In this document: positions 13,201 through 52,589 of the stretch, piece by piece
How positions within the stretch are numbered: the first letter of the stretch is position 1
How the letters are laid out: every line of letters starts with the position of its first letter
Origin: an uncultured Actinomycetes bacterium
Lineage (GTDB): Bacteria > Actinomycetota > Thermoleophilia > Gaiellales > JAICJC01
DNA: 64,000 nt
Reading direction: 5' to 3'
NCBI GenBank assembly: GCA_963746115.1
Contig: CAVVAA010000004.1
Span: 431,218-495,217, forward strand
Notes under the pieces: generated by a model
The model's input: only the letters and a program-made list of their open reading frames with translations
Told to the model about the DNA's origin: nothing
Databases searched by the model: none
Position numbers and translations under genes: made by a program

Positions 13201-13233
13201 GGTGCCAGGCACCGCGGCGAGGTGCCAGGCACC
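13201..13233. repeat. Palindromic 13-mer pair, family B (GGTGCCAGGCACC-gcggcga-GGTGCCAGGCACC)
   Basis: Two exact copies 7 nt apart, between the convergent cupin (stop 13191) and fae (stop 13265). Confidence 0.9.
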
Positions 13234-15077: not shown

Positions 15078-15107
15078 GGGGACTGTCCCCGCACGGGGAC
15101 AGTCCCC
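15078..15107. repeat. Palindromic 13-mer pair, family A (GGGGACTGTCCCC-gcac-GGGGACAGTCCCC)
   Basis: Exact copies, between the convergent RCC1 gene (stop 15066) and the MFS gene (stop 15113). Confidence 0.9.
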
Positions 15108-19035: not shown

Positions 19036-19062
19036 GGGGACTGTCCCATGGGGACAGTCCCC
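19036..19062. repeat. Palindromic 13-mer pair, family A (GGGGACTGTCCC-at-GGGGACAGTCCCC; first copy lacks its last C)
   Basis: Between the convergent beta-propeller gene (stop 19022) and the choline-kinase-like gene (stop 19072). Confidence 0.85.
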
Positions 19063-22474: not shown

Positions 22475-23944
22475 GTGGCCGCGCCGTCCGTGATCCTCGC
22501 CCTCGACCAGGGCAGCTCGAGCACCCGCTGCATCGCCTACGACGCGCGCCTGAGCCAGGTCGCAACGGCGGTGTCGCGGGTCGAGACGTCGCGCCCCGGC
22601 CCGGGCATGGTCGAGCACGACCCGGACGCGCTCCTGGCCGGTGCGCTCGGCGCGATCGCCGAGGCGCGCGCTGCCTGCGGGGGCGACGTGGCCGGAATCG
22701 GCGTCGCCAACCAGACCGAGACGTTCGTCCTGTGGGAGCGGGACACGGGGCGCGCGGTCACGCCGCTGATCAGCTGGCAGGACCAGCGGGCCGAGGAGCT
22801 CTGCCGGGCGCTCGCCCCCGAGCCCGCGGCAGAGCGGATCGGGGCCGTGACCGGGCTCGCGCTCGATCCGACCTTCTCGGCGCCGAAGCTGGCGTGGCTC
22901 TTCGGCCGCGACCCGGCGCTGCTCGCGCGGGCGGAGTCGGGCGAGCTCGCGTTCGGCGACGTGGCCTGCTGGCTCGCGTGGCACCTGTCCGGCGGCGCCG
23001 GCCATGTCAGCGAGCCGTCGAACGCCTGCCGCACCCTCGTGCTCGACATCGGGGCGATGGCGTGGGACGACGGCCTGCTCGACCTGTTCGGTGTGCCCGC
23101 GGCGCTGCTGCCCGGAGGTGCGCGACTCCGACGGCTCGGGACTGGTCACCTCGGCGGAGATGGTCGGGTTCGAGGCGCCCGTCGCTGCCATGCTCGGCGA
23201 CCAGCAGTCGGCGCTCTACGGCCAGGGCTGCACCGCTCCGCGGATGGCGGCGCTCACCCTCGGCACCGGCGCCTTCGTGTGGCTCAACGCCGGCCCCGAC
23301 CGGCCCGACCCGTCCGAGGGCGTGCTCGCGACCGTTGCCTGGCAGACGGCCCGGCGAGGGCCGCACCTATGCGCTCGAGGCCTTCGGCGCGAACGCGGGC
23401 AACGCCCTCGGCGTGCTGCGCGGGAGCGGCCTTGTCGATGCGGGCTGGCAGTCACGTGCACCCGATTGGGCCCGCCCGCACCCGGTCGTCGTGCCCGCGC
23501 CGGCCGGCCTCGGGACGCCGCACTGGCACGGCGCCGACCGCGTGACGGTGGTCGGGGCGAGCAGCGCGACGACGGCGGACGACCTCGCCGAGGCATGGGT
23601 GGCCGGCGTCGCCCATCAGGTCGCCGACGCGCTCGCCGCCCAGGAGTCGTCGGGCGGGATCGACGTCCTGCGCGTCGGCGGCGGCCTCGCGGCCGACCGC
23701 GCGCTCCTGCAGGCGGTCGCCGACCTGTCCGGGCGTCGTGCTCGAGGTCGCCGCCGACCTCGAGGCGACGGCGCGCGGGATCGCGACGCTCGCCGCCGCG
23801 TCTGTCGGCGTGCTCGACGCCGGCGCGGCCGGGCACGCGGTGGCCCATCGGGTGGAGCCCGCGCTCGACGCGACCGGCCGCGAGCGCGAGCGGGCGCGGT
23901 GGCGCGACGCGCTCGAGGTGCACATGCGCCCGGAGCCGGGGTGA
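22475..23944 (+). pseudogene. glpK: Glycerol kinase (FGGY family), broken by three +1 frame shifts (~23112, ~23360, ~23735)
   Basis: The pieces read ILALDQGSSSTRC...ISWQDQRA...LLP | EVRDSDGSGLV...AMLGDQQSALYGQGC...TVAWQ | YALEAFGANAGNAL...GLGTPHW...LRVGGGLAADRALLQAVADLSG | VLEVAADLEATARGIATLAA, across four track frames. Confidence 0.8.
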
Positions 23945-25542
23945 GCGACGCCGCGCTCGGGCCCGCCGCGCGCGCCGCGGCGCTCGGGCGGATGCGGGCG
24001 GAGCGGTTCGACCTGCTCGTCGTCGGCGGCGGGATCACCGGCGTCGGCATCGCCCTCGACGCGGCAACGCGCGGCCTGTCGGTCGCCCTCGTCGAGGCGC
24101 ACGACATCGCCGCGGGGACGTCGAGCCGCTCCAGCAAGCTCATCCACGGCGGCCTGCGCTACCTGGAGATGCTCGACTTCGGCCTCGTCCGCGAGGCGCT
24201 GCGCGAGCGCCGGCTGCTGCTGACGACCCTGGCGCCGCACCTCGTCCGTCCCGTGCCGTTCCTGTTCCCGCTGCGGCACCGGCTGTGGGAGCGGCCCTAC
24301 CTGGGCGCCGGGCTTCTGCTCTACGACACCATGGGCGGCGCCCGCCACGTTCCGCGGGCGCAGCACCTGTCGAAGCGGACGGCGCTGCGCTCGGCGCCGG
24401 CGCTGCGCCCGGACTCGCTGGTCGGGGCGGTGCGGTTCCACGACGCGCAGGAGGACGACGCCCTCTTCGCCGTGCACGTCGCCCGCACGGCGGCCGCGCA
24501 CGGCGCCGCGATCGCGACGCGAGCGGCGGTCACGGCGTTCGCGCGCGACGAGCGCGGACGGGTCGCCGGCGCGCGCGTCCGCGACGGCCTCGCCGGCGGC
24601 GAGCTCGACGTGCGCGCTCGCCACACGATCGTCGCCGTCGGCGTTGGCACCGACCGCGTGCTCGAGCTTGCGACCGGAAGCCCGCACCACGCCCTGCGCC
24701 CGTCGAAGGGCGATCCACCTGCTCGTGCCGCGCGCGGCGATCCCGATGCGGACGGGGCTCTTCATGCGCACCGAGAAGAGCATCTTCCACGCCATCCCGT
24801 GGGGCGACGGAGCACTGGCTGCTGGGCGATACGGACACCGAGTGGGACGGCGACGCCGGACGCGCCCGTGGCCAACCGGGCCGACGTCGACTACGTGCTC
24901 GCGAAGGTGAACAGCGTGCTCGTGCGGCCGGTCCAGAAGGCGCAGGTCTGCGGCGTCTACGCGGGCCTGCGCCCGCTCGTCGCGGCCCAGGGGGCGGCGA
25001 CGACGACCCGCCTCTCCCGCGAGCACCGGCTGTTCGCGCCGCTGCCGGGGCTGACCGCGATCGCCGGCGGCAAGTACACCACCTACCGGGTGATGGCCCG
25101 CGATGCGGTCGATGCGGCGGCCCGCGACCTCGGTGGCGCTGCGCCCTCGCGGACGCACGAGGTTCCGCTGGTCGACGCCGCGGGCGAGGTCGACGCGCTG
25201 GTCGCCGCCGACCCGGCGCTGGGGGAGCCGATCGCGGGCACCCGGCACAGGGCCGCCGACGCCGTCCACGCGTGCACGCACGAGGGCGCGCTCGACCTGG
25301 ACGACGTCCTCACCCGGCGGCTGCGGGTCTCGATCGAGGTGCCCGACCGCGGCCGGGCGGCCGCCGCCGAGGTTGCCCCGCTCGTCGCGCCCGCGCTGGA
25401 CTGGTCGGACGCGCGGGTGGCTGACGAGATCGCCCGCTACGTCCGGCTCCGCGACGCCGAGGCTGCCGCCGAGGACGCGCCCGACGACGCCACCGCCCGC
25501 GCACGCTACCGGGCCGTGCTCGGCGCACCAGACGGGGTCTGA
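23941..25542 (+). pseudogene. glpD: Glycerol-3-phosphate dehydrogenase (FAD-dependent, GlpD type), with three +1 frame shifts (~24711, ~24808, ~24852)
   Basis: GTG 23941 overlaps the glpK stop (GTGA). FDLLVVGGGITGVGIALDAATRG...SSRSSKLIHGGLRYL. Middle section RPSKG | IHLLVPRAAIPMRTGLFMRTEKSIFHAIPWGD | HWLLGDTDTEWDGD | ANRADVDYVLAKVN lies in three frames. Start and end share one frame. Confidence 0.8.
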
Positions 25543-25546
25543 CCCC
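25534..25546. repeat. Palindromic 13-mer, family C (GGGGTCTGACCCC), single copy
   Basis: Exact palindrome. Its central TGA (25540-25542) is the glpD stop codon. It lies between convergent glpD and the adhesin-like gene. Confidence 0.7.
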
Positions 25547-28934: not shown

Positions 28935-30107
28935 TCAGGCTCGCGCGCCTGGCCCGTAGGCCAGGCGCAGCAGCCGGCCGGCGGCGAACCGACCCGGGCG
29001 CAGCTCGGAGACGTCGACCGGCGGCGTCCGCCCGGTCACCTCGGCCGCGACCACCTCGCCGACGGCGGGGGAGAGCTTGAACCCGTGGCCGCTCCAGCCG
29101 ACCGCCAGATACAGGCCGTCGATGCCGGGGCACGGGCCCAGGATCGGGTTCCAGTCCGGCGTAATGTCGTACGGCCCCGCCCACGCCCGCTCGACGGCGA
29201 AGTCGGCCAGGCGGGGGTAGCGCACGGCCACCGCCTTGCGGACGATGTCGGCGTACCCGGCCGACGCCTCGTGGTCGCAGTCGTCGGCCCGGTCGAGCGG
29301 ATCCTCGCCGGCGTAGGCGACGGCGCAGAACCGGCGGCCGCGGTCGGGGCGCACGACGACGTTCGTGACGCCGTCCGAGCACACCGCCGAGGGCAGCGGC
29401 GCGCCCGGCTCGCGGCGGGCGACGACCACCTGCAGCCGGCGCAGCTCGATCGGCTGCTCGGCGCCGATCGGGCGCAGTAGGTCGTTCGTCCACGCGCCGG
29501 TCGCGAGGACGACCGTGCCGGCGGCGGTGAGCCCGCGGTCGGTCTCGACCCCGGTCACGCGCCCGTTCTCGACGCGCAGCCCGCGGACGGCGCATCCGAG
29601 CTCGTGGCGCAAACCTCGCGACGACGCGGCCGCGAACCAGCCCAGGCACATCTTCTGCGCGTCGGCGAAGCCGCCGTCCGGCTCGTACGCCGCCCCGGCG
29701 ACCCCGTCGAGCGAGAGCTCGGGCTCGACCTCGCCGATCTCGTCCGGCTCGAGAAAGTGTGTCTCGAGGCCGATCCGCTGCAGCCGGGCGACGTTGTCGC
29801 GGCAGGCAGCTGCGAGCCGCTCGGGCACCGTCAGCAGATAGCCGCAGCGTACGTAGCCGGCGTCGGCGACGCCGACCTCGTTCTCCCAGTCGGCGATCGT
29901 GCGCGTGCCGGCCATGGCCAGGCGAGCGGTGACGGCGTTCGAGTAGTGGCGGCGCACCATCGAGAACGAGCGGCCGGAGTCGCCCGAGCCGGGCCAGCCG
30001 CGGTCGAAGAGGGCGACGCCCCGGTGGCCGTCACGGGTGAGCGCATGCGCCGTCGCGAGGCCGGTGATCCCGGCGCCGACGATGGCGATGTCGGTCGAGT
30101 CGGGCAC
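28935..30107 (-). CDS. FAD-dependent oxidoreductase (DAO family: glycine/D-amino-acid/sarcosine-oxidase-beta-like)
   Basis: Track ORF 28935..30194 trimmed to GTG 30107: VPDSTDIAIVGAGITGLATAHAL. The longer N-terminus would translate the palindromic repeat at 30142-30173. Transcribed divergently from the BMC operon. Confidence 0.8.
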   Translation of the reverse strand: MPDSTDIAIVGAGITGLATAHALTRDGHRGVALFDRGWPGSGDSGRSFSMVRRHYSNAVTARLAMAGTRTIADWENEVGVADAGYVRCGYLLTVPERLAAACRDNVARLQRIGLETHFLEPDEIGEVEPELSLDGVAGAAYEPDGGFADAQKMCLGWFAAASSRGLRHELGCAVRGLRVENGRVTGVETDRGLTAAGTVVLATGAWTNDLLRPIGAEQPIELRRLQVVVARREPGAPLPSAVCSDGVTNVVVRPDRGRRFCAVAYAGEDPLDRADDCDHEASAGYADIVRKAVAVRYPRLADFAVERAWAGPYDITPDWNPILGPCPGIDGLYLAVGWSGHGFKLSPAVGEVVAAEVTGRTPPVDVSELRPGRFAAGRLLRLAYGPGARA

Positions 30108-30141
30108 GGCGGCAACGCTACACCCGCCGACTTCTGCGATG

Positions 30142-30173
30142 GGTGCCTGGCACCGCGTCCGGTGCCAGGCACC
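30142..30173. repeat. Palindromic 13-mer pair, family B (GGTGCCTGGCACC-gcgtcc-GGTGCCAGGCACC)
   Basis: Two exact 13-nt palindromes 6 nt apart, in the divergent control region between the FAD oxidoreductase and the BMC operon. Confidence 0.9.
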
Positions 30174-30187
30174 GGTGCGCCATCGGC

Positions 30188-30233
30188 AGACCAATACGCC
30201 CGATTTGCTTTTTGGTCTGGTATTCGGTACGTT
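30188..30233 (+). promoter_or_regulatory. Candidate promoter/operator of the BMC operon: everted half-sites AGACCA (30188-30193) and TGGTCT (30213-30218), -35-like TTGCTT (30205-30210), -10-like TACGTT (30228-30233)
   Basis: This is the most AT-rich stretch of the intergenic region. The half-sites equal the two halves of the HutC/DasR-type TGGTCTAGACCA motif but in swapped order, 19 nt apart. ATG at 30248. Confidence 0.3.
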
Positions 30234-30247
30234 CCGCCGCGATCGGG

Positions 30248-31540
30248 ATGTACGACTACGGCTTCTTCTCCTACGAGTCCAAGGACGAGTTCCTCGACCG
30301 GTCGCGGCAGTTCTGGAACCCGGACAAGACCGACTTCTGGCAGGACGCCGGGGTCGACCTCGTCATCGACCGCCGCGAGGGCTACTTCTTCTGGGACATG
30401 GCCGGGCGGCGCCTGGTCGACCTGCACCTGAACGGCGGCACGTACAACCTGGGCCACCGCAATCCCGAGCTGATCGCGACGCTCGAGCAGGCGATGCAGC
30501 GCTTCGACATCGGCAACCACCACTTCCCGGCGCTCGCCCGCACCGCCCTGGCCGAGGCGCTCGTGAAGACGTGCGCCCCGAACATGCGCCGGGTGGTCTA
30601 CGGCGCGGGCGGCGGCGAGGCCACCGACATCGCGATCAAGACCGCCCGCCACACCCGCCAGCGGCGCAAGATCGTCTCGATCCTCAAGGGCTACCACGGC
30701 CACACCGGCCTCGCGGTCTCCGCCGGGGACGACCGCTTCTCGAAGCTCTTCCTGGCCGACCGCCCCGACGAGTTCGTGCAGGTGCCGTTCAACGACCTCG
30801 GCGCCATGGAGGGTGCGCTGCGCGCGGGCGACGTGGCCGCCGTGCTGCTCGAGACCATCCCCGCCACGTACGGCTTCCCGCTGCCCGACCCCGGCTACCT
30901 CCAGGGGGTGAAACGGCTCTGCGAGCGGTTCGGCGCCCTCTACATCGCCGACGAGGTGCAGACCGGGCTCATGCGCACGGGCGAGATGTGGGGCATCTCC
31001 AAGGCCGGCGTCGAGCCGGACATCATGGTGATCGGCAAGGGCATCACCGGCGGCATGTACCCGATCTCGTGCGTCGTCCTCTCGGAGGAGTGCTCGGCGT
31101 GGCTGAAGGAGGACGGCTTCGGCCACATCTCCACCGGCGGCGGGGCCGAGCTCGGCTGTGTCGTCGCCCTCAAGGTGCTCGAGATCTGCGGCCGGCCGGA
31201 GGTGCGCTCGATGGTGCACTACATCTCCGACCGCTTCGGCCGCGGCCTGCGCGCGATCCAGGAGCTCTACCCCGACTGGTTCGTCGGCATCCGCCAGGAC
31301 GGCGTGGTCATGGGGCTCGAGTTCGACCATCCCCAGGGCGCGAAGATCGTGATGAAGCAGCTGTACGAGAACGGCGTGTGGGCGATCTTCTCGACGCTCG
31401 ACCCGCGCGTGCTCCAGTTCAAGCCGGGGATCCTGCTCGGCCCGGAGCTGGTGGACGAGGTGCTCGACCGCACCGAGGTGTCGATCGGGCAGGCGCTCGC
31501 CGAGGTGCGCGGCGGCCGGGCCGCGGTGGGGGCGCGATGA
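30248..31540 (+). CDS. Class-III aminotransferase-fold PLP enzyme. In RMM-type BMC loci this is the 1-amino-2-propanol O-phosphate phospho-lyase.
   Basis: ATG 30248 within track ORF 30143..31540. MYDYGFFSYESKDEFLDRSRQFWNP...LNGGTYNLGHRNPE...IADEVQTGLMRTGEMWG...PDIMVIGKGITGGMYP (PLP Lys). Confidence 0.8.
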   Translation: MYDYGFFSYESKDEFLDRSRQFWNPDKTDFWQDAGVDLVIDRREGYFFWDMAGRRLVDLHLNGGTYNLGHRNPELIATLEQAMQRFDIGNHHFPALARTALAEALVKTCAPNMRRVVYGAGGGEATDIAIKTARHTRQRRKIVSILKGYHGHTGLAVSAGDDRFSKLFLADRPDEFVQVPFNDLGAMEGALRAGDVAAVLLETIPATYGFPLPDPGYLQGVKRLCERFGALYIADEVQTGLMRTGEMWGISKAGVEPDIMVIGKGITGGMYPISCVVLSEECSAWLKEDGFGHISTGGGAELGCVVALKVLEICGRPEVRSMVHYISDRFGRGLRAIQELYPDWFVGIRQDGVVMGLEFDHPQGAKIVMKQLYENGVWAIFSTLDPRVLQFKPGILLGPELVDEVLDRTEVSIGQALAEVRGGRAAVGAR

Positions 31541-33042
31541 GCGCCGTCGCCGCCGAGCCGGCCGGCGTCCCCCGGGCGCGGATGATGCTCCAGCGCGCCC
31601 ACTGGGCCGCCACGGCGTTCGCCGCGTACGACCACGAGCGCACCCGCCGCATCGTCGAGGCAGTCGCCGAGGAGGCATACCGAAACGCCGAAAGGTATGC
31701 CGAGTGGGCGGTCACGGAGACCGGCATGGGCGTGGTCGAGCACAAGCGGCGCAAGAACGAGGCCTGCTCGCGCGGGCTGCTCGAGTGGTACGGCGGCCGC
31801 GACTACGTGAGCGCCCGGGTCGATCCCGAGGCGAAGATCGTCGAGCTGCCCCGGCCGGCCGGCGTCGTCCTCGCCCTGACGCCGTCGACGAACCCGATCG
31901 CCACCGTCTACTTCAAGGTGCTGCTGGCGCTGATGACCCGCAACGCCGTCGTCGTCAGCCCGCATCCGCTCGCGCGCGAGTCGTCGGCCGACGCCGCCCA
32001 CCGCCTGGCGGCGGCCGCCGTCGAGGCGGGCGCCCCCGACGGGTGCGTGCAGGCCGTGGAGGAGCCGACGATCCCGCTGATCGAGGCGCTCATGAGCGAC
32101 CCGACGACCGACGTCATCCTGGCGACGGGCGGCGTCGCGGTCGTCCGGGCCGCCTACCGCTCCGGCAACCCGGCGATCGGCGTCGGCCCGGGCAACGTGC
32201 CCGCGCTCGTCGATCACACCGCCGACCTGGCCGCGGCCGCCGAACGGCTGATGGACTCGAAGTGCTTCGACAACTCGATCCTGTGCACGAACGAGTCGTG
32301 CGCGATCGTCGAGGAGCGCTGCGCCGCGGAGTTCGAGCGCGAGCTGGCCCGCCACGGCGGCCACGTGGTCGCGCCGGACGAGGTGGCGGCGGTGCGCGAG
32401 AAGCTCTACCCGGAGGGCCGCATCCGGGTCGACCTGGCCGGGCGCGACGCGGCCCGGCTGGCGGAGGAGTGCGGGATCCGCGTGCCGGCGAAGACGCGCG
32501 TCCTGGTCGCGCCGTTCCCGCTCGTCGTCCCCGAGGAGCCGCTCGCGCGCGAGAAGCTCTTCCCGCTGCTCGGGCTCGTGCGGGTGCCGGACGCGCGCCG
32601 CGGCATCGACGCCGCGTGCGCCATGCTGCGCATCGGCGGGGCCGGCCATTCGGCGGTGATCCACTCGCGCGACCCGCGCACGATCATGGCCTACGGCGCC
32701 GCGGTGAAGGTGCTGCGGGTGGCCGTGAACGTCGGCGGCAGCACCGGCTCGGCGGGCCTCGACACGAACCTCGCGCCGACGATGACGATCGGCACGGGCT
32801 TCTTCGGGCGGTCGTCGCTCGGCGAGAACCTGGAGCCGCGGCATCTGATCAACATGACCCGGGTCGCCTATTCCTCCGACCCGTCCGAGGCCTTCGGCGA
32901 CTTCGCCGACCTCGAGCCGTGGAGCGCCGCGCCCGAGGCCGCACCCGTCGCGGCGCCGGAGCGTCCGGCGGCCGTCGCCGAGGCCCGCGACGAGATCCGC
33001 CGGATCGTGCTCGAGGAGCTGCGGGAGCTGGTGAGACGTTGA
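31537..33042 (+). CDS. CoA-acylating aldehyde dehydrogenase (EutE/PduP-like) with C-terminal amphipathic extension
   Basis: ATG 31537 overlaps the upstream stop (ATGA). Lies in the frame of track ORF 30037..33042. LTPSTNP...ATGGVAVVRAAYRSGNPAIGVGPGN...KCFDNSILCTNE (catalytic Cys). Tail PEAAPVAAPERPAAVAEARDEIRRIVLEELRELVRR. Confidence 0.88.
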   Translation: MSAVAAEPAGVPRARMMLQRAHWAATAFAAYDHERTRRIVEAVAEEAYRNAERYAEWAVTETGMGVVEHKRRKNEACSRGLLEWYGGRDYVSARVDPEAKIVELPRPAGVVLALTPSTNPIATVYFKVLLALMTRNAVVVSPHPLARESSADAAHRLAAAAVEAGAPDGCVQAVEEPTIPLIEALMSDPTTDVILATGGVAVVRAAYRSGNPAIGVGPGNVPALVDHTADLAAAAERLMDSKCFDNSILCTNESCAIVEERCAAEFERELARHGGHVVAPDEVAAVREKLYPEGRIRVDLAGRDAARLAEECGIRVPAKTRVLVAPFPLVVPEEPLAREKLFPLLGLVRVPDARRGIDAACAMLRIGGAGHSAVIHSRDPRTIMAYGAAVKVLRVAVNVGGSTGSAGLDTNLAPTMTIGTGFFGRSSLGENLEPRHLINMTRVAYSSDPSEAFGDFADLEPWSAAPEAAPVAAPERPAAVAEARDEIRRIVLEELRELVRR

Positions 33043-33647
33043 TGGCCGAGCTCAGATCGTTCATCTTCATCGACCAGCTCCAGCCGCAGACGATGTGCTA
33101 CCTCGGCACGTGGATCCGCGGCCGGCTCCCGCGCACGAACATGGCGGCGCAGATCATCGAGATCGCGCCCGGCCTGGACATCGAGCCGCTGACCGACGTC
33201 GCGCTCAAGTCGACCGAGGTGCAGGCGGGCATCCTGGTCGTCGAGCGCCAGTTCGGCTACCTCGAGATCCACTCCCGCTCGACCGCCGAGGTGCACGCCG
33301 CGAGCAGCGCCGTGCTCGAGGCGCTCGGCGCGACGGCCGCCGACGCGACCCGGCCGCAGATCCTGGCGTCGGAGCTGATCACCCGGCTCGACCACCAGCA
33401 CGCCTTCCTGATCAACCGCAACAAGCTCGGGTCGATGGCGCTTCCCGGCGAGTCGCTCTTCGTGCTCGAGATGCAGCCCGCCTCCTACGCGATCCTCGCC
33501 ACGAACGAGGCCGAGAAGGCGGCGCGGATCAAGGTGGTCGACTACCGCATGATCGGCGCCACCGGCCGGGTGTACCTGGCCGGCATGGAGGCCGACGTGC
33601 GCACGGCCGGCGACGCCGCCGTCGCGGCGCTGGGAGGTGCGGTGTGA
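33042..33647 (+). CDS. BMC shell protein, ~200 aa, tandem-domain (BMC-T-like), paralogue 1
   Basis: ATG 33042 overlaps the ALDH stop. MAELRSFIFIDQLQPQTMCYLGTW...VVERQFGYLEIHSRS...INRNKLGSMALPGESLFVLEMQPASYAILATNEAEKAA...GATGRVYLAG. Paralogous to 34802..35443. Position matches the ~200-aa shell genes of RMM loci (from memory). Confidence 0.65.
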   Translation: MAELRSFIFIDQLQPQTMCYLGTWIRGRLPRTNMAAQIIEIAPGLDIEPLTDVALKSTEVQAGILVVERQFGYLEIHSRSTAEVHAASSAVLEALGATAADATRPQILASELITRLDHQHAFLINRNKLGSMALPGESLFVLEMQPASYAILATNEAEKAARIKVVDYRMIGATGRVYLAGMEADVRTAGDAAVAALGGAV

Positions 33648-34270
33648 GCACCCCGGAAGACGCCGACGTGCTGCGCAGCGTCACTCGCGAGGTGCTGGCC
33701 GACCTCCTGCCCGAGCTGCTGTCGGAGGCGCTGACGACGTCGAACGGGAATGGGCATGGGGACAGTCCCCATCCGGGGACTGTCCCCGATTCTCGGCCAG
33801 GCACCGTCCCCCAGGTGCCGGGGCCGCCGATCGCCGCCGTGCATCGCCCCGCCGGGTGGCGTCCGCCGCCCGAGTCGGATACGACCCGGCCGCAGCCCGC
33901 GGCACCGGCGCCCGTGTCGGCGCAGACGGATGCCGGCGCGGCCGTCGAGCGGGTCGACCTGCGCAGCGACGCCGACCTGGACGCGTTCGTGCGCTCGCTC
34001 GTGCACCGGTTCGAGAACCCGCGCGACCGCATGGCGATCCGGTCCGGCAAGCTGCGCTTCCGGCTGGGCGCGACGGCCGAGACGACCTCGCAGCCTGCGT
34101 CCGCGCCGGCGATCCGGATCGAGCGCGGCGCCGTCACCGAGCGGGCCGTGCGCGACGCGGCCGCCCAGGGCGCCCGGCTCGTGCTGGCGCCGCGGGCGGT
34201 GCTGACGCCGATGGCGCGCGACCGCGCCCGGAGCCTGGGAGTCGAGATCGAGAAGGAGCGACCATGCTGA
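33644..34270 (+). CDS. BMC-associated protein of unknown function, 208 aa. Has an N-terminal amphipathic helix and a Pro-rich linker that contains an in-frame palindromic repeat.
   Basis: GTG 33644 overlaps the upstream stop (GTGTGA). [30 protein letters not shown]...[26 protein letters not shown]...[47 protein letters not shown]. Confidence 0.6.
33758..33787. repeat. Palindromic 13-mer pair, family A (GGGGACAGTCCCC-atcc-GGGGACTGTCCCC), inside a CDS
   Basis: Exact copies. Translated in frame as [10 protein letters not shown] within the linker of gene 33644..34270. Confidence 0.9.
33795..33822. repeat. Degenerate family-B pair (GGCCAGGCACC ... GGTGCCGGGG), inside the same CDS
   Basis: 10/13 and about 9/13 matches to GGTGCCWGGCACC, 7 nt downstream of the family-A pair. 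Translated as [10 protein letters not shown]. Confidence 0.4.
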
Positions 34271-34506
34271 GAGCGACCGTCACCGGCGCTGTGTGGGCGA
34301 CCAAGCGGGTCGACCGGATCCCGAACGGCGCGTTCCTCGAGGTCGAGATGGACGGCGGCGGCCGCGCGGTCGCGTTCGACGTGCTCGGAAGCGGCGTCGG
34401 CGAGCGCGTGCTGGTCGCAACCGGCTCGGTCGCCTCGAGCTGGCTCGGGGACGACCATCCGCCCATCGACGCACTCATCATCGGATCCATCGACGAGAAC
34501 GAGTAA
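34264..34506 (+). CDS. BMC vertex pentamer (BMC-P, EutN/CcmL family)
   Basis: ATG 34264 overlaps the upstream stop. 80 aa: [57 protein letters not shown]...[11 protein letters not shown]. Matches the EutN pattern by eye. Confidence 0.85.
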
Positions 34507-34517
34507 GAGGAGGAGTC

Positions 34518-34796
34518 ATGGCACAGAACGCAATCGGCATGATCGAGACCAAGGGGTACGTGGCGGCAATCGCTGCCGCGGACGCAATGGTCAAGGCCGC
34601 GAACGTCACGATCGTGGCCCGCGAGCAGGTCGGCGACGGCCTCGTGTCCGTCGTGATCCAGGGCGACGTCGGGGCCGTGAAGGCCGCCACGGAGGCGGGC
34701 GCCGAGACCGCCTCGAGCGTCGGCGACCTCGTGTCGGTGCACGTCATCCCGCGCCCGCACTCCGAGCTCGACAAGCACTTCGTGCACGCGGGCTAG
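34518..34796 (+). CDS. BMC hexamer shell protein (BMC-H, PduA/EutM-like, Pfam BMC domain)
   Basis: ATG 34518 after AGGAGGAG. 92 aa: [81 protein letters not shown]. Confidence 0.93.
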
Positions 34797-34801
34797 CGGG
34801 G

Positions 34802-35443
34802 ATGGAGAACTCCGCAGTCCAGCTGCGGGTCTACCTGCCGATCCCGAGGCTCGGCCGCCAGTTCGCGGCCTATCTGGGGACGCCCACGCGTGCCCGTGGA
34901 TACCCGCCGATCGAGGGCGACCACGCGCTGATCGTCGAGGTGGCGCCGGCGCTCGCGATCGAGCGGGTGACCGACCTCGCGCTGCGGTCGGTGCCGGAGA
35001 TCGAGCCGGGCATCCTCTACGTCGAGCGCCAGTTCGGCGTGCTCGAGGTGCACCACCGGGACAAGGCGCTCGTCGACCGGGCCGGCGCGGCCATCCTCGA
35101 CGGGATCGGGGCGACGGCCGCGGACGCGCTGCGGCCGCGTATCCTCTACGCCGACGTGATCGAGGACATCACCGACCAGCACGCGGTGATCATCAACCGC
35201 AACCGCGAGGCGTCGATGGTGCTGCCGGGCGAGACGCTGCTCGTGTACGAGGTGGTGCCCGCGCTGCACGCCGCCATGGCCGCCAACGCCGCCGAGCGGG
35301 CCGCGCCGGAGGCGACGCTCGTCACCGTCTCGATGATCGGCGCCGCCGGCCGCATCTACATGTCCGGCGACACGGAGAGCGTCGTGCGCGCCCGCGACGA
35401 GATCACGCGCGTGCTCGAGTCGGTGGAGGGCCGTGAGCACTGA
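34802..35443 (+). CDS. BMC shell protein, ~213 aa, tandem-domain (BMC-T-like), paralogue 2
   Basis: 213-aa ORF. YVERQFGVLEVHHRD...INRNREASMVLPGETLLVYEVVPALHAAMAANAAERAA...GAAGRIYMSG. Collinear with 33042..33647. Confidence 0.65.
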   Translation: MENSAVQLRVYLPIPRLGRQFAAYLGTPTRARGYPPIEGDHALIVEVAPALAIERVTDLALRSVPEIEPGILYVERQFGVLEVHHRDKALVDRAGAAILDGIGATAADALRPRILYADVIEDITDQHAVIINRNREASMVLPGETLLVYEVVPALHAAMAANAAERAAPEATLVTVSMIGAAGRIYMSGDTESVVRARDEITRVLESVEGREH

Positions 35444-36419
35444 CCAGGCTGCGATCGACCGCCTGGCCCAGGCCGCGCTGCCCGCGTACGACCTCGACCC
35501 GGCGGCCACGGTCGCCCTGATCAACGTGTCCGAGAACTGGACGTACCGGATCGAGGAGCCGGGCGGCCGCGCGTTCGCGCTGCGCGTCCACCGGCCGACG
35601 TACCACACGGCCGAGGAGATCGCCTCGGAGCTCGACTGGATCGACGCGCTGCGCGATGACGGCGTGGTGGAGACGGCGCATGCCGTCGCCGGCCGGGGCG
35701 GGGACCGCGTCTGCCAGGTGCGCACCGACGAGCTCGGCGAGCGCAACGTCGTGCTGTTCGACTGGCTCGCGGGCGAGATGCCCGACGCCGACGCGCACGA
35801 CCTCATGCCCGGGTTCCGCACGCTCGGCGCCGTCTCGGCCCGGATGCACCGCCATTCCCGCAGCTGGGCGCCGCCGTCGGGGTTCGCCCGCTTCCGCTGG
35901 GAGTACGACACGACGCTCGGCGCGAACGGCCACTGGGGCCGGTGGCAGGACGGCCTCGGGATGGGATCGGAGGAGCTCGCGCTGCTCGGCCGGCTCGACG
36001 CCACGCTACGGCAACGGCTCGACGCCTACGGCCAGGGGGCCGAGCGGTTCGGCCTCGTCCATGCCGACATCCGCCTCGCCAACCTGCTCGTCGACGGCGA
36101 GCACGTGCGCGTGATCGACTTCGACGACTGCGGCTGGTCGTGGTTCATGTACGACTTCGCCACGACCGTGTCGTTCATCGAGGACCACCCGGACGTGCCC
36201 CGGCTGAAGGCCGCCTGGGTGGAGGGCTACCGCTCCGCCGCCGAGCTCGACCCGGCCGACGAGGCCGAGCTGGACACCTTCGTCATGCTGCGCCGGCTCC
36301 TGCTCGTGGCCTGGATCGGCTCGCACCACCAGTTCGCCACCGAGGCCGCCGAGCTCGGCGCCGGATTCACCGCCGGCACCTGCGCGCTCGCCGAGCGGTA
36401 CCTCTCCGCATACGGCTGA
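35433..36419 (+). CDS. APH-fold phosphotransferase. In RMM-type loci this is the 1-amino-2-propanol kinase.
   Basis: 328-aa ORF with GTG start, overlapping the upstream gene by 11 nt. INVSENWTYRIE...FGLVHADIRLANLLVDGEHVRVIDFDDCGW. Confidence 0.82.
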   Translation: MSTDQAAIDRLAQAALPAYDLDPAATVALINVSENWTYRIEEPGGRAFALRVHRPTYHTAEEIASELDWIDALRDDGVVETAHAVAGRGGDRVCQVRTDELGERNVVLFDWLAGEMPDADAHDLMPGFRTLGAVSARMHRHSRSWAPPSGFARFRWEYDTTLGANGHWGRWQDGLGMGSEELALLGRLDATLRQRLDAYGQGAERFGLVHADIRLANLLVDGEHVRVIDFDDCGWSWFMYDFATTVSFIEDHPDVPRLKAAWVEGYRSAAELDPADEAELDTFVMLRRLLLVAWIGSHHQFATEAAELGAGFTAGTCALAERYLSAYG

Positions 36420-36424
36420 GCCGG

Positions 36425-36772
36425 CTACTTGATGCTGACCACGAGCCGCAGGCGACCCGCATGTGGGACGTGGATCACGTGTGGCACGGTCACCGGTGGT
36501 AGGCCGCCCGTCCTGATGCTGACCGTGTACGTCCCGGGAGCCACGTCGAAGGCGAACCGGCCCTGTCGGTCGGTGCGGACGTCGGCCGACTCGCCATCAC
36601 CCTCGATCTCCAGGCGCACACCGGGCATCGCGACCGGCCCGCCCGCTGCAGGGCCGCCGATGCGCACGAGCGTGCCGTGCGTGTGGACCGGCCTGGAGCT
36701 CGCGGTCGATCCGCTTCCACATGCGGAGACGAGGAGGACGGCGAGCAGCACGACCGCGCGGGACCAATTCAT
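36425..36772 (-). CDS. Small lipoprotein with carboxypeptidase-regulatory-like (Ig-like beta-sandwich) domain
   Basis: Last 115 codons of track ORF 36425..37972(-), from ATG 36772. MNWSRAVVLLAVLLVSACGSG (lipobox LVSAC). VRLEIEGDGESADVRTDRQGRFAFDVAPGTYTVSI. Confidence 0.6.
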   Translation of the reverse strand: MNWSRAVVLLAVLLVSACGSGSTASSRPVHTHGTLVRIGGPAAGGPVAMPGVRLEIEGDGESADVRTDRQGRFAFDVAPGTYTVSIRTGGLPPVTVPHVIHVPHAGRLRLVVSIK

Positions 36773-36791
36773 GGCATTTGGACCGTAGAAT
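36761..36791 (+). promoter_or_regulatory. Candidate operator/promoter upstream of the SDR-GntR genes: everted GGACCA (36761-36766) / TGGACC (36779-36784), then -10-like TAGAAT (36786-36791)
   Basis: Same everted GACCA...TGG(A/T)C arrangement as at 30188-30218. Sits in a 54-bp divergent gap. Confidence 0.25.
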
Positions 36792-36826
36792 GGGCCGCCC
36801 GGTTCCACCGATCGCACGAGGAGGAG

Positions 36827-37612
36827 ATGATGTTCACCCCACTCACCGGCCGGACGGTGCTCGTCACCGGCGGCACCAAGGGCATCGGCAAGGGCATCGC
36901 GGGCGAGTTCGCAGCTGCGGGCTGCAACGTCGCCCTGAGCGGCCGCGGCGAACATGCCGGCGAGCAGGCGGTGCTCGACCTCGAAGCGCGCGGCGGCCAC
37001 GTCTCCTTCTACAAGGGCGACGTCGCCAGGGCCGACGACTGCGAGCGGGTGGCGTCCGAGGTCGCCTCGCGCTACGGCGGCATCGACATCGTCTGCGCCA
37101 ACGCCGGCGTCTTCCCCGACGTCAAGCTGGCGGACATGACCGAGGACGACATCGACACGATCTTCGCGACCAACGTCAAGGGCACCATGCTGACGGTGAA
37201 GGCCTGCCTGCCCCACCTGGAGCGCTCCGGCCACGGCCGGGTGATCCTGACGAGCTCGATCACCGGCCCGATCACCGGGTTCCCGGGCTGGTCGCACTAC
37301 GGCGCGACGAAGGCGGCCCAGCTCGGCTTTCTGCGCACCGCCTGCATCGAGCTCGCGCCGAAGCGGATCACGGTGAACGCCGTCCTGCCGGGCAACGTCG
37401 AGTCGGAGGGGATGGACGAGCTCGGCCCCGAGTACCGGGCATCGATGGAGGCGTCGATCCCGCTCGGCCGCCTCGGCTACCCGTCGGAGATCGGGGCGGC
37501 GGCGGTGTTCCTGGCGACCGACGAGGCGGGCTACATCACCGGCCAGACCATCGTGGTCGACGGCGGCCAGATACAGCCCGAGTCGCTGGCCGCGCTCGAG
37601 GCCGCCCGGTAG
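36827..37612 (+). CDS. Short-chain dehydrogenase/reductase (FabG-like). In RMM-type loci this is the aminopropanol/aminoacetone dehydrogenase.
   Basis: ATG 36827 after GAGGAGGAG, within track ORF 36677..37612. VLVTGGTKGIGKGIA...NAGV...SSITG...YGATKAA. Confidence 0.88.
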   Translation: MMFTPLTGRTVLVTGGTKGIGKGIAGEFAAAGCNVALSGRGEHAGEQAVLDLEARGGHVSFYKGDVARADDCERVASEVASRYGGIDIVCANAGVFPDVKLADMTEDDIDTIFATNVKGTMLTVKACLPHLERSGHGRVILTSSITGPITGFPGWSHYGATKAAQLGFLRTACIELAPKRITVNAVLPGNVESEGMDELGPEYRASMEASIPLGRLGYPSEIGAAAVFLATDEAGYITGQTIVVDGGQIQPESLAALEAAR

Positions 37613-37619
37613 GGGCGCC

Positions 37620-38414
37620 GTGACCGAGCCCGTCCCCGGACTGCCCGCCGCCTTCGCGCCGCTCGGGCCGGCGGCGGCGGGCCTGCGCGACCGCCTCGCC
37701 GCCGAGATCGAGTCCGGCGCGCCAGGCCCGGGCGAGCGCCTGGGCGCCGAGCGCGAGCTCGCCGCCCGGCTGGGGGTGAGCCGCTCGACGCTGCGCGCCG
37801 CCCTGGATGCGCTCGAGACGGCGGGGGTCGTGCACCGCGTCCGCGGCCGGTCGGGCGGCATCTTCGTCTCGGAGCGGCGGGTCGAGCGCGACCTGACGAG
37901 CCTCACCAGCCTGCCGGCGTACATGCGCCGCCAGGGGTTCCAGTCCGGCGCCCGCGTGCTCTCGACGGCCACGGTCGGCGCCGACGCCGAGGCAGCCGCG
38001 GCCCTCGACGTGCCCGAGGGCGCGCTCGTGCTCGAGGTCGTCCGCGTCCGCCTCGCCGACGAGCAGCCGATCTCGCTCGAGCGGGCCCGCTTCCCCGCCG
38101 ACCGTTTCCCCGGGCTGCTCGACCGCTCGCTGTCGGGATCGCTGTACGAGCTGCTCGAGTCCGGCTACGGCCTGCGCCCGAGCGAGGCCGAGGAGCGGGT
38201 CGAGGTGGTCGGCGCGACGGCCGCCGAGGCCCGCGTGCTCGAGGTGCGCGCGGGCGCGCCGCTGGTGTCGATCGCCCGCACGGCCTGGTCGGAGGACGGC
38301 CGCCCGTTCGAGCGCTCGAACGACCTGTTCCGGGCCGACCGGGTGCGCATCGTCGTGCGCGTGCGCACGCGCGACCCGCATTCGCTGGGAAGCGCCGTCG
38401 AGGTCGTCCGCTAG
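37620..38414 (+). CDS. GntR-family transcriptional regulator, HutC subfamily (UTRA effector domain)
   Basis: 264-aa ORF. GERLGAERELAARLGVSRSTLRAALDALETAGVVHRVRGRSGGIFV, followed by a UTRA-like C-terminal half. Confidence 0.85.
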   Translation: MTEPVPGLPAAFAPLGPAAAGLRDRLAAEIESGAPGPGERLGAERELAARLGVSRSTLRAALDALETAGVVHRVRGRSGGIFVSERRVERDLTSLTSLPAYMRRQGFQSGARVLSTATVGADAEAAAALDVPEGALVLEVVRVRLADEQPISLERARFPADRFPGLLDRSLSGSLYELLESGYGLRPSEAEERVEVVGATAAEARVLEVRAGAPLVSIARTAWSEDGRPFERSNDLFRADRVRIVVRVRTRDPHSLGSAVEVVR

Positions 38415-38425
38415 CAGGGGCGTGG

Positions 38426-38923
38426 GTGGTGACCGAGTTACAGCAACTGCGAGCCGACCATGCAGTGGCGGTTCTCGCCTTCGAGCTGGCAAACCGCGCG
38501 TACTTCGCTGCGTCGATCTCCGACCGGGGCGATGCGTTCTTTGACGAGTTCACCGCACGGCACCGCGCCCTGCTGGACGAGCAGGACGCCGGCATCGGCG
38601 CGTTCTACGTGCTCGTCGCCGAAGATGGCTCGGTCCTGGGCCGGTTCAACCTGGTCTTTGTCGACCATGGGACGGCGGAGCTCGGGTACCGGGTCGCGCA
38701 GCACGTCGCCGGACGCGGCGTGGCGACAGAGACCGTGCGGGAACTCTGCCGGCTGGCCGCGACCCGTCACGGCCTGCGGAGGCTCAGGGCAGCCACCGCC
38801 TGTGAGAATGTCGCCTCCCGGAAGGTGCTGGCCAACGCCGGGTTCGTCGCGGTCGGCCCGGCCGATCCAGCCGACATCGGCGGAAAGCCGGGCACCTGGT
38901 ACGAGCGCGCCATCGCTGAATAA
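38426..38923 (+). CDS. GNAT-family N-acetyltransferase (RimJ/RimL-like)
   Basis: 165-aa ORF. ELGYRVAQHVAGRGVATETVRELCRLA...RLRAATACENVASRKVLANAGF. Confidence 0.8.
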   Translation: MVTELQQLRADHAVAVLAFELANRAYFAASISDRGDAFFDEFTARHRALLDEQDAGIGAFYVLVAEDGSVLGRFNLVFVDHGTAELGYRVAQHVAGRGVATETVRELCRLAATRHGLRRLRAATACENVASRKVLANAGFVAVGPADPADIGGKPGTWYERAIAE

Positions 38924-38949
38924 ACGGGGTCTGACCCCGTTTATTCAGC
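38915..38949. terminator. Extended family-C palindrome (35-nt perfect inverted repeat around GGGGTCTGACCCC), a putative bidirectional terminator hairpin
   Basis: GCTGAATAAACGGGGTC-T-GACCCCGTTTATTCAGC. The TAA stop of the GNAT gene (38921-38923) lies inside the left arm. There is no obvious U-tract. Confidence 0.55.
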
Positions 38950-39070
38950 TGGGGGGCGCCAGGCGGCCTGGGAGCGGGCCACGCAGCAGGAGCGGCCGAC
39001 GCGGCAGATGAGCCGGTCGAGCGTGCGCAGGATGCGGGCGGCGGTCGCCATCCGTCCACGGTAGCCCAAA

Positions 39071-40045
39071 GTGCCATACTCCCCGGAAGCGATGGCCGAG
39101 CACGTCATCACCCGCGACGCGCCCACCCACCGCAGCTGGGACGTGGACACGGAGCCGGTCGTGCGGATCCGGCCCGGCGACGTCGTCACCGCCGAGACCG
39201 ACGACTTCGCGGGCGGCCAGATCACCCGCACCTCCACCGCGGCCGACCTGCCCCGGCTCGACTTCGACCTGATCTACCCGCTCGCCGGGCCGATCTACGT
39301 CGAAGGCGCCGAGCCCGGCGACGCGGTCGCGATCGAGTTCCTCGAGTTCGAGCTCCCCGAGTGGGGCTGGGCCTGCATCATCCCCGGCCTCGGGCTGCTC
39401 CCGCCGGGCGAGTTCACCGATCCGTACATCAAGTTCTTCGACCTGACCGGCGGCGCCGAGATGGACTTCGCGCCCGGCGTGCGCCTGCCGATCGAGCCGT
39501 TCTGCGGCACGACGGGGGTGCCCGGCGCCGGGATGCACGGCGTGCCCATCCCGCCGCCGCACGCCGGTGGCGGCAACATCGACTGCCGCCACCTGACGAA
39601 GGGGACGACGCTGTACCTGCCCGTCGGCGCGCCGGGCGCGCTCGTCTCGCTGGGCGACGCCCACGCCGCCCAGGGCGACGGCGAGGTGGCGATCTCCGGC
39701 GTCGAGTGCGCGATGCGGACGACGCTGCGGATCACCGTCGAGCGGGGCATGAACCTGCGCGCCCCGGCGCTGCGGCGGCGGCCCGGTCCGCTGACTCCGC
39801 GCGTCGACCGCGGCGGCTGGTTCGCGACGACCGGCGTCGAGCCCGACCTGATGGAGGCGTCCCGCTCGGCCGTCCGCGCGATGATCGAGCACCTGGTCGC
39901 ACGCCGCGGCCTCACACGTGAGGACGCTTACATGTTGTGCTCGCTTGCGGGTGATCTGAAGGTCACCGAGGTCGTCGATGCGCCAAACTGGATGGTGGGC
40001 TGCTTCATGCCCGACGCGGTGTTCACCAACCAGGAGGTCGCGTGA
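39071..40045 (+). CDS. Acetamidase/formamidase-family amidohydrolase
   Basis: 324-aa ORF. PLAGPIYVEGAEPGDAVAIEFLE...WGWACIIPGLGLL...GGNIDCRHLTKGTTLYLPV...LVSLGDAHAAQGDGEV. Confidence 0.85.
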   Translation: MPYSPEAMAEHVITRDAPTHRSWDVDTEPVVRIRPGDVVTAETDDFAGGQITRTSTAADLPRLDFDLIYPLAGPIYVEGAEPGDAVAIEFLEFELPEWGWACIIPGLGLLPPGEFTDPYIKFFDLTGGAEMDFAPGVRLPIEPFCGTTGVPGAGMHGVPIPPPHAGGGNIDCRHLTKGTTLYLPVGAPGALVSLGDAHAAQGDGEVAISGVECAMRTTLRITVERGMNLRAPALRRRPGPLTPRVDRGGWFATTGVEPDLMEASRSAVRAMIEHLVARRGLTREDAYMLCSLAGDLKVTEVVDAPNWMVGCFMPDAVFTNQEVA

Positions 40046-47617: not shown

Positions 47618-47650
47618 GGTGCCTGGCACCGCGACGCGGTGCCAGGCACC
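47618..47650. repeat. Palindromic 13-mer pair, family B (GGTGCCTGGCACC-gcgacgc-GGTGCCAGGCACC)
   Basis: Exact copies 7 nt apart, between co-directional genes, 15 nt upstream of GTG 47665. Confidence 0.9.
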
Positions 47651-52559: not shown

Positions 52560-52589
52560 ATACACGGGGTCTGACCCCGGTTATTCGGG
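52555..52589. terminator. Extended family-C palindrome (imperfect copy of the 38915 element), a putative bidirectional terminator hairpin
   Basis: CCTGAATACACGGGGTC-T-GACCCCGGTTATTCGGG. Contains the TGA stop of the hydrolase (52557-52559) and the TAA stop of the convergent kinase (tta 52581-52583). Confidence 0.55.

Follow-up and report, generated by a model that had tools for sequence, protein, structure and literature searches.

The subject of this work is a 30-nt palindromic element at positions 33758-33787 of a 64,000-nt stretch of DNA from an uncultured Gaiellales bacterium (contig CAVVAA010000004.1; this whole stretch is hereafter called the window). The element lies in frame inside a protein-coding gene (33644-34270) of a microcompartment (BMC) locus, and it is probably an intragenic copy of a REP/REPIN-type repeat that is tolerated in a linker of the encoded protein and evolves as a DNA hairpin. 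The family to which it belongs is a REP/REPIN-type repeat family of the GGGGWSAS class.

Sequence, reading frame and folding of the element

The palindrome that the initial annotation of this DNA had placed in frame at 33758 was confirmed from the sequence and the open reading frame (ORF), and the translation quoted there is right. The element has the structure GGGGACAGTCCCC-ATCC-GGGGACTGTCCCC and corresponds to codons 39-48 of the gene, which encode a 10-residue peptide. Arm 1 (GGGGACAGTCCCC, 33758-33770, + strand) is a self-palindromic 13-nt unit read GGG GAC AGT CCC (C), i.e. GDSP. The loop ATCC (33771-33774, + strand), which is variable and inverted among orthologues, is part of the codons CAT CCG (HP), and arm 2 (GGGGACTGTCCCC, 33775-33787, + strand), read (CC)G GGG ACT GTC CCC, i.e. 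GTVP, forms a 13-bp stem with arm 1. Each 13-mer is a palindrome around its own centre base and arm 2 is the reverse complement of arm 1. The complete 30-mer forms a perfect 13-bp hairpin, with folding energies of -29.1 kcal/mol as RNA (z -6.3) and -16.4 kcal/mol as DNA (z -6.6). Folding of the wider segment 33740-33840, which had been proposed as a check for a strong hairpin in the mRNA, gave -63 kcal/mol (z -4.2), in agreement with that proposal.

Downstream of the element a degenerate second unit, GGCCAGGCACC...GGTGCCGGGG, had also been described, and its two halves have to be treated separately. The left half (33799-33811, + strand; AGGCACCGTCCCC, with 3 mismatches to GGGGACTGTCCCC and encoding a second GTVP) is best read, from its sequence, as a third copy of the 13-mer that has decayed; the corresponding position is intact in the orthologous loci L002 (CGG CCG GGG ACT GTC CCC), L005, L016, L029 and L031. 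The right half did not stand as part of a repeat: it is conserved coding sequence for the motif VPQVPGPP, kept in nearly all orthologues, the repeat-free ones included. The second unit as a whole forms a marginal 6-bp stem (-14.4 kcal/mol, z -2.5) that was equalled by 3 of 200 shuffled sequences.

A consensus promoter and terminator scan of 30000-39200 detected neither a U-tract nor a terminator-like site. The tail of the hairpin is GAUUCUCGG, and the combination of a G+C-rich hairpin and a U-tract that defines an intrinsic terminator was not found at 33758-33787. No matches at gathering thresholds were obtained when the whole window was scanned against Rfam.

An AlphaFold model of the host protein, built from 35 orthologues, consists of a helix (residues 4-31), a coil (32-99, pLDDT 40-53) and a folded domain (100-208, pLDDT about 80-89). 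The repeat-encoded residues are predicted in this model to sit in the coil, as a disordered linker through which the reading frame is preserved, just as had been suggested from the DNA letters.

Comparison of orthologous loci

Orthologous loci were taken from species-level genomes (26 loci) and from metagenome contigs (7 loci). An identical doublet (two units and their spacer) with identical codons was present at the same linker site in L003, L004 and L016, and a doublet with one mismatch was found at that site in L001, L002, L020 and L027. In L005, L006, L018 and L031 the site is occupied by GGGGCCAGGCCCC-loop-GGGGCCTGGCCCC, which is read GARP..GPGP, and the same arrangement with one change is found in L014 and L029. 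Hybrid or decayed sequences occupy the site in L012, L030, L032, L033 and L034. The element is absent from L007-L011, L013, L015, L021, L025 and L026, all of which have the gene and also, wherever the contig reaches that far, the upstream aldehyde dehydrogenase (ALDH) gene. Hence an insertion specific to this genome, which the alignment of orthologues might have revealed, was not upheld: the element of the host gene is common to many species of one Gaiellales subclade, whereas deeper orthologues are without it and several lineages show it in a state of decay. Of the 120 closest homologues, 27 have the encoded sequence at the peptide level and 58 are without any trace of it.

The codons used by the element are rare in the window, where AGT accounts for 0.9% of Ser codons, ACT for 1.7% of Thr, AGG for 2.3% of Arg and CCT for 1.4% of Pro. 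Given the peptide, the probability of the observed codon choice is about 5e-7 for either version (GDSP/GTVP or GARP/GPGP). Orthologues encoding the same peptide with other codons, which the initial annotation had named as the sign of ordinary coding sequence, were not observed; what is seen instead is retention of the rare codons or a change of both arms. When 18 hairpins were aligned, 91.8% of the cells were paired, and double-sided changes at pairs 5-29 (A-U to C-G) and 9-25 (U-A to G-C) were present in 9 cells. The covariation score of this alignment was matched by 1 of 500 shuffles, and all slid registers scored far lower. The replacement of GDSP/GTVP by GARP/GPGP is non-conservative for the protein and retains every base pair.

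The arms are identical at 26 of 26 positions between the window and L004 or L016, at a divergence of 0.29-0.33 at the 4-fold sites of the neighbouring ALDH gene. Between L004 and L005 the 4-fold divergence is just 0.145 and the arms differ at precisely the four symmetric positions. The neighbour-joining tree of ALDH, in which the GGGGAC and GGGGCC types are intermixed, serves as a rough guide, and recombination at the locus is possible. Judging from these sequence comparisons, conservation acts on the nucleotide palindrome rather than on the peptide, because in the orthologues either the rare codons are kept or both arms are switched together.

The orthologous gene (at about position 10001) shifts out of frame part-way in L017, L020, L021, L024, L025 and L026. 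These shifts are probably assembly indels and not signs of pseudogenes, the sources being mostly long-read 'MFD' metagenome-assembled genomes.

Signs of hairpin behaviour in the DNA

The loops of the element are reverse-complementary between species: that of the window (ATCC) to that of L001 (GGAT), and that of L004 and L016 (CATGCG) to that of L002 (CGCATG). At the protein level this inversion turns HP or HA into GM or RM. The window and L027 share 99.0% identity along 20.6 kb, yet the unit at 38926 is centred on T in the window and on A in L027, and the centre of arm 1 of the in-gene copy has changed from A to C in L027. The GGGGAC, GGGGCC and GGGGTC types of palindrome differ from one another solely at positions 5 and 9, and GGTGCC differs from GGGGCC solely at positions 3 and 11. 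Hybrid units also occur, namely GGGGCCTGTCCCC in L032 and GGGAACTGTCCCC at position 6519 of L004. One-sided changes would be copied to the partner arm by template switching or repair in the folded strand, and such copying would bring about a fast, concerted re-typing of the arms in place.

Of the 15 in-gene copies, 12 have A as the first centre base and T as the second, and none has the reverse order; elsewhere the corresponding figures are 1 of 9 and 5 of 9. As the in-gene copies share ancestry, this bias is no more than suggestive of protein-level selection against the T-first order, which would encode Cys or Trp. Selection at the level of the protein seems to be visible in two ways only, in the retention of the frame and in this centre order.

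The repeat family in the window and at related loci

Allowing up to one mismatch, 13 occurrences of the 13-mer were counted over both strands of the window, where 0.21 would be expected, and none of 100 shuffled sequences reached 13. Exact 13-mer units of the whole family number 15, at 10 loci in the 64 kb. When the window and the related loci (546 kb) were analysed together, four types stood out among all 13-nt palindromes: GGGGAC (32 copies), GGGGCC (19), GGGGTC (17) and GGTGCC (14). No palindrome of the GGGGGC type was found there. The centre base is A or T in 78 of these 82 units, despite a G+C content of 73%.

The family is dispersed and mostly intergenic, as the initial annotation had stated. 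Eight of the 10 window loci are extragenic (binomial P = 2e-4, taking 23% of the window as non-coding; the gene caller, based on the G+C content at third codon positions (GC3), gives 77% coding and misses some genes). Five of them separate convergent genes, with about 3-52 nt to the end of either gene; two lie after or before a gene and one is in a divergent region. Two doublets located between convergent genes bear out the claim that the element elsewhere marks gene ends: one at 15078-15107 (GGGGACTGTCCCC GCAC GGGGACAGTCCCC, with a hairpin of -29.1 kcal/mol) and one at 19036-19062 (with 1 mismatch and a 1-nt spacer), both of the same type as the element at 33758. Doublets of the related GGTGCC type were found at 30142-30173 (GGTGCCWGGCACC), in the divergent intergenic region 5' of the BMC operon, at 13201-13233, between convergent genes, and at 47618-47650, 15 nt upstream of a gene starting at 47665. 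The doublets at 15078, 19036, 30142, 33758 and 47618 form perfect stems of 12-15 bp.

The remaining loci have single units. Single copies of GGGGTCTGACCCC are present at 38926-38938, in the centre of a 16-bp hairpin (38915-38949) just past the stop codon of a GNAT gene, at 52566-52578, in a hairpin between convergent genes, and at 25534-25546, where the TGA of the unit (25540-25542) is the stop codon of the gene 23941-25542. Of the six frames of this type one contains a stop codon, and the syntenic copy of the 25534 unit in L027 lies between convergent genes. A single GGGGACAGTCCCC at 48172-48184 (+ strand) belongs to coding sequence, where it is translated as part of KVGDSPRVD and likewise uses the rare codon AGT; it is either a repeat copy or native sequence that matches by chance.

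The type of palindrome at a given site varies among genomes. At the site syntenic to 38926, GGGGTC, GGGGCC or GGTGCC cores were found in other genomes. The GGTGCC doublet at 30142 of the window has as its counterpart in L001, whose overall identity is 92%, a doublet of the GGGGAC type, and the flanks are exchanged as well. Other genomes show GGGGCC at this position (L005 and L006), paired GGGGTC units separated by 37 nt (L012 and L014) or five GGGGAC units (L016), and no unit is present there in L002 or L018. The five units of L016 (6273-6533), some with extended stems of about 23 bp, fill a 365-nt region upstream of the operon. Another cluster was seen in L013 (5363-5523), where three intergenic GGGGTCAGACCCC units 74 nt apart are each followed by TCCGCGGGGGGCGTT.

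Neither the exact 13-mers nor the 11-mers nor the tetrapeptides that they encode gave anything but unrelated primer or peptide matches in a search of the full-text literature, and a blastn search of the unit array against plasmids gave no matches.

In-frame copies in other genes and association with transposases

The GGGGAC unit is free of stop codons in all six frames and always reads Gly-x-x-Pro (GDSP, GTVP, GQSP, GLSP or GDCP) because of its GGGG...CCCC ends. Metagenome contigs were scanned for GGGGACWGTCCCC-N1-8-GGGGACWGTCCCC, and at least 147 doublets were obtained in at least 120 contigs of 32%-77% G+C. Among the doublets listed, 30% are strictly inverted and 70% have identical centres (TT/AA), that is, one central mismatch. 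Tandem arrays of units were also observed in L053 (2303-2491, about 11 copies) and L036 (3663-3769, about 6 copies), with a 4-5-nt spacer, a period of 17-18 nt and a single centre base.

Doublets are located in coding-like ORFs in 52 of the 147 listed cases, a rough count that takes in false positives from contigs of high G+C content (in L089, for instance, the doublet lies upstream of the likely true start); the solid cases are the low-GC ones and MnmA only. In-frame doublets occur in long ORFs identified by eye as alanyl-tRNA synthetase (AlaRS, L126), leucyl-tRNA synthetase (LeuRS, L083), cysteine desulfurase (L039), GDP-fucose synthase (L102), UvrC (two copies, L059) and TopA (L105, again encoding GDSPHAGTVP). 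MnmA (L130) is the only in-frame case that was confirmed by a family search, in which all the homologues had MnmA Pfam domains. The closest repeat-free MnmA, 79% identical, has ARIEREPNGTARLLAGV where that of L130 has ARGLSPKGTVPAVLLTGL.

Two of the listed contigs, L142 and L090, contain an ORF with a doublet on both sides that matches Pfam Y1_Tnp, the IS200-like HUH/tyrosine transposase family, above threshold (E = 2.6e-11 and 4.5e-15, respectively). In L090 the left doublet is GGGGACTGTCCCCAAAGGGGACTGTCCCC and the right doublet is its exact reverse complement; CGTAGG precedes doublets solely around the transposase of this contig. The ORFs of L090 and L142 carry the motifs MPNHFHL and RY(V/I)ERNPVRA, and relatives of the two proteins are named 'REP-associated tyrosine transposase' (RAYT) by some sources. 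Among the transposase homologues, that of L087 adjoins a doublet and that of L141 is 1.6 kb from one. In Geobacter bemidjiensis (L155) and in one further contig (L156) the gene is flanked by inverted repeats starting with GGGGACAGGCTAC... or GGGGACATTCTAC.... The doublets flanking the transposases of L090 and L142 and the repeats of L155 and L156 start with GGGGACAG or GGGGACAT. Both GGGGACAG and GGGGTCAG fit the GGGGWSAS motif, from which the types GGGGCC and GGTGCC each depart at a single position. The mobile-type family postulated in the initial annotation is consequently recognised as one of the REP/RAYT kind, since the same doublet flanks Y1/HUH transposases in other contigs, and by analogy with these the repeats of the present lineage would be mobile. 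Among the best 120 proteins of a profile search for RAYT homologues there were none from Gaiellales.

In the Geobacter bemidjiensis genome (CP001124.1, 2866900-2868774), long hairpins of the form GGGGACAGGCTACTTTTT...AAAAAGTAGCCTGTCCCC stand on both sides of the Y1_Tnp gene. They join a GGGGACAG start with an internal GTAG.

The host gene and the surrounding operon

The host gene (33644-34270, + strand) is annotated in public assemblies as one gene, encoding a BMC-locus protein of 208 aa. Its GC3 is 0.90, and its GTG start overlaps the stop codon of the upstream BMC-T gene. At its N-terminus the protein has an amphipathic helix that resembles an encapsulation peptide, and a long linker rich in Pro and Gly connects this helix to a small folded domain at the C-terminus. 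It has 1575 homologues and no Pfam family. The sole match in Pfam, NCBIfam and PDB sequences was the C-terminus of TIGR02536, below threshold (E = 0.032), and a Foldseek search with the AlphaFold model gave no fold matches.

The surrounding operon is an RMM-type microcompartment operon. Upstream of the host gene it comprises a class-III aminotransferase (30248-31540), ALDH (31537-33042) and BMC-T (33039-33647). The next gene 3' of the host gene encodes BMC-P (34264-34506), and it is followed by BMC-H (34539-34796), a second BMC-T (34802-35443), an APH-type kinase (35433-36419), an SDR (36827-37612) and a GntR/UTRA regulator (37620-38414). A small ORF on the - strand (36425-36772), whose counterpart in the near-identical contig L027 is CarboxypepD_reg, lies between the kinase and the SDR and interrupts the co-directional order. 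An operator-like sequence, AGACCAATAC ... TGGTCTGGTATTCGGTAC, was observed at 30188-30230, just 3' of the doublet in the divergent region that precedes the operon. It is kept in about 12 orthologous loci while the neighbouring palindromes vary, and is plausibly a candidate site of the operon's own GntR/UTRA regulator.

Origin of the element and alternative explanations

If the element at 33758-33787 is a tolerated intragenic repeat copy, the following course of events may be proposed. The unit is a 13-nt self-palindrome of the form GGGG-N-C-W-G-N'-CCCC or GGTGCC-W-GGCACC, and two inverted units produce a 13-bp hairpin in single-stranded DNA or RNA. Folded single strands would be recognised and spread by a domesticated Y1/HUH tyrosine transposase (RAYT/TIRYT), as we infer for this genome. 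The doublet and the third unit would have arrived in the linker-coding part of the gene in an ancestor of the Gaiellales subclade, presumably by transposase-dependent spread. Such an insertion would be tolerated because the units are free of stop codons in six frames, always read Gly-x-x-Pro and fall in the disordered stretch that joins the helix to the C-terminal domain, and for the protein it would be neutral. Since then the arms have changed together, the loops have inverted and the centre bases flipped, and some lineages have lost the element. The palindrome would probably be kept by hairpin-templated mutation or repair and by whatever keeps the family palindromic, possibly selection on the family.

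Several observations weigh against this account. A RAYT/TIRYT gene was not found by tblastn in the window or in about 0.5 Mb of Gaiellales loci (L001-L034), and no conserved GTAG, CGTC or other flank tag was detected at the window copies or at 102 oriented metagenome doublets, nor did the latter share a target site. Among the loci compared there is no empty site close enough to prove insertion. In MnmA a loop of variable length has given way to the peptide, so that the protein is longer by a net 1 residue and not by 10; an origin of the repeat in situ is therefore conceivable. The type of the in-gene copies matches the type of the other copies in the same genome weakly (P = 0.03 for units, 0.23 for sites). 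Finally, perfect identity of the arms at a synonymous divergence of about 0.3 is equally expected from selection on an RNA hairpin.

Such a selected RNA element, suggested in the initial annotation as a possible means of tuning shell-to-cargo stoichiometry, would pause ribosomes, attenuate transcription or block 3'-5' exonucleases in the polycistronic BMC mRNA, and would set the ratio of aminotransferase, ALDH and BMC-T to BMC-P, BMC-H, BMC-T and kinase. The stability of the hairpin (-29.1 kcal/mol), the full conservation of the arms at about 0.3 4-fold divergence, the compensatory double changes and the site just before the pentamer gene are in line with it, and so is the stabilisation of upstream mRNA by REPs in other bacteria, a matter mentioned as background in PMC3733652. 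This explanation is nevertheless unlikely, given that no U-tract or terminator-like site was found, that the element is absent in deeper orthologues having the same gene (and the same neighbours where these are seen) and decayed in several lineages, that the closest relative, 99% identical, already has a centre mismatch, and that the intergenic copies show the same conservation and type switching. Moreover, a transcript ending within the ORF would be without a stop codon. The in-frame copies in unrelated housekeeping genes indicate tolerated insertions rather than operon-specific regulation. The hairpin will form part of the operon mRNA, and it may have a modest effect on ribosome transit or mRNA decay. 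It is rather improbable that the doublet was co-opted as an operon-internal RNA/DNA hairpin that sets the ratio of cargo and BMC-T to pentamer and hexamer, with its arms re-typed by the repeat machinery; if this were true, a domesticated transposase system would rewrite a protein linker (GDSP/GTVP to GARP/GPGP) while the regulatory structure is preserved.

The 13-bp palindromes might also be operators or nucleoid-protein sites, the in-gene pair regulating the operon through, for example, the GntR/UTRA protein. Each unit is a perfect dyad of the kind preferred by dimeric DNA-binding proteins, and a doublet does lie in the operon's divergent promoter region. The cores at syntenic positions, however, differ (GGGGAC, GGGGCC, GGGGTC, GGTGCC) or are missing, whereas the adjacent 43-nt operator-like sequence is conserved; the copies are mostly at 3' ends between convergent genes, the spacing of the units ranges from 1 to 8 nt and the same units flank transposase genes, all of which makes a binding site very improbable. 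Ordinary coding sequence, in which the peptide is a selected linker motif and the palindrome incidental, was rejected on the codon and covariation data. The recurrence of the peptide in 27 of the 120 closest homologues agrees with it, but it is hardly credible in the face of the rare codons (P about 5e-7), the non-conservative swap to GARP..GPGP that preserves base pairing, the loop inversions that turn HP into GM or RM, and the presence of identical DNA in intergenic places.

Significance and comparison with known systems

Read as a tolerated repeat copy, the element offers a clear and well-sampled example of how a REP-type hairpin evolves within translated sequence, where the palindrome dictates the peptide and the protein demands only the frame and benign residues. 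The element alone does not reveal a new regulatory principle. For annotators, the case shows that repeat copies can lie behind unusual GxxP..GxxP inserts and rare codons when a gene is rich in G+C. For studies of REPIN/RAYT dynamics, such repeats are extended to Thermoleophilia, and, with the metagenome sample, one stop-free Gly...Pro 13-mer design recurs in genes of many phyla. For BMC engineering, the linker tolerates arbitrary inserts of 10-18 residues.

The family resembles the intrinsic terminators and conserved terminator hairpins of Actinobacteria in having G+C-rich hairpins right after stop codons, often shared by convergent genes. Unlike those, it has no U-tract, it consists of discrete sequence families instead of free-form stems, and it is also found in 5' regions and inside genes. 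The very small dispersed repeats of cyanobacteria, reportedly described by Elhai et al. in Genome Research in 2008, are said to be nested-palindromic, mobile and tens of nt long. As in the present case, they are said to occur between and inside genes with the frame preserved; they have other sequences and belong to another phylum, and we know of no demonstrated link between them and a Y1 transposase.

Rickettsia palindromic elements (RPE) are about 100-150 bp long. The present element is like them an in-frame palindrome in a functional gene, RPE adding a surface peptide to the protein according to the passages that PMC3733652 and PMC10969869 devote to them. RPE differ in being longer, specific to Rickettsia and unrelated in sequence, whereas the insert described here comprises 30-54 nt in a disordered linker.

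The closest likeness is to the REP/REPIN elements, including the 'TIRtron/TIRYT' systems, and their RAYT (TnpA-REP) transposases (Nunvar 2010, PMC2817692; Bertels & Rainey 2011, PMC3116915; Di Nocera 2013, PMC3733652; Corneloup 2021, PMC8266576). As in those, short G+C-rich palindromes are present in many copies and several types per genome, are mostly extragenic near the 3' ends of convergent or co-directional genes, form inverted doublets that fold into a larger hairpin, and flank Y1/HUH transposase genes, here in other contigs. The 13-nt units are, by contrast, very short and perfectly self-palindromic, with spacers of just 1-8 nt, and the GTAG or CGTC tag of the tagged REP superfamilies was not seen in them. 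Tyrosine-transposase genes flanked by GGGGWSAS inverted repeats, some of them doubly palindromic and present as singles, dimers or clusters, were described by Di Nocera (2013, PMC3733652). The same work reported intragenic REPs in uvrA, tRNA synthetase and other genes, more than half of them dimers or grouped, and considered them possibly neutral in linkers or loops. Intragenic REPs and GGGGWSAS repeats around tyrosine transposases are thus already known since 2013. What differs from the described REP cases, and is new, is the lineage, Gaiellales (Thermoleophilia), and the gene context, a host gene in an RMM-type BMC locus.

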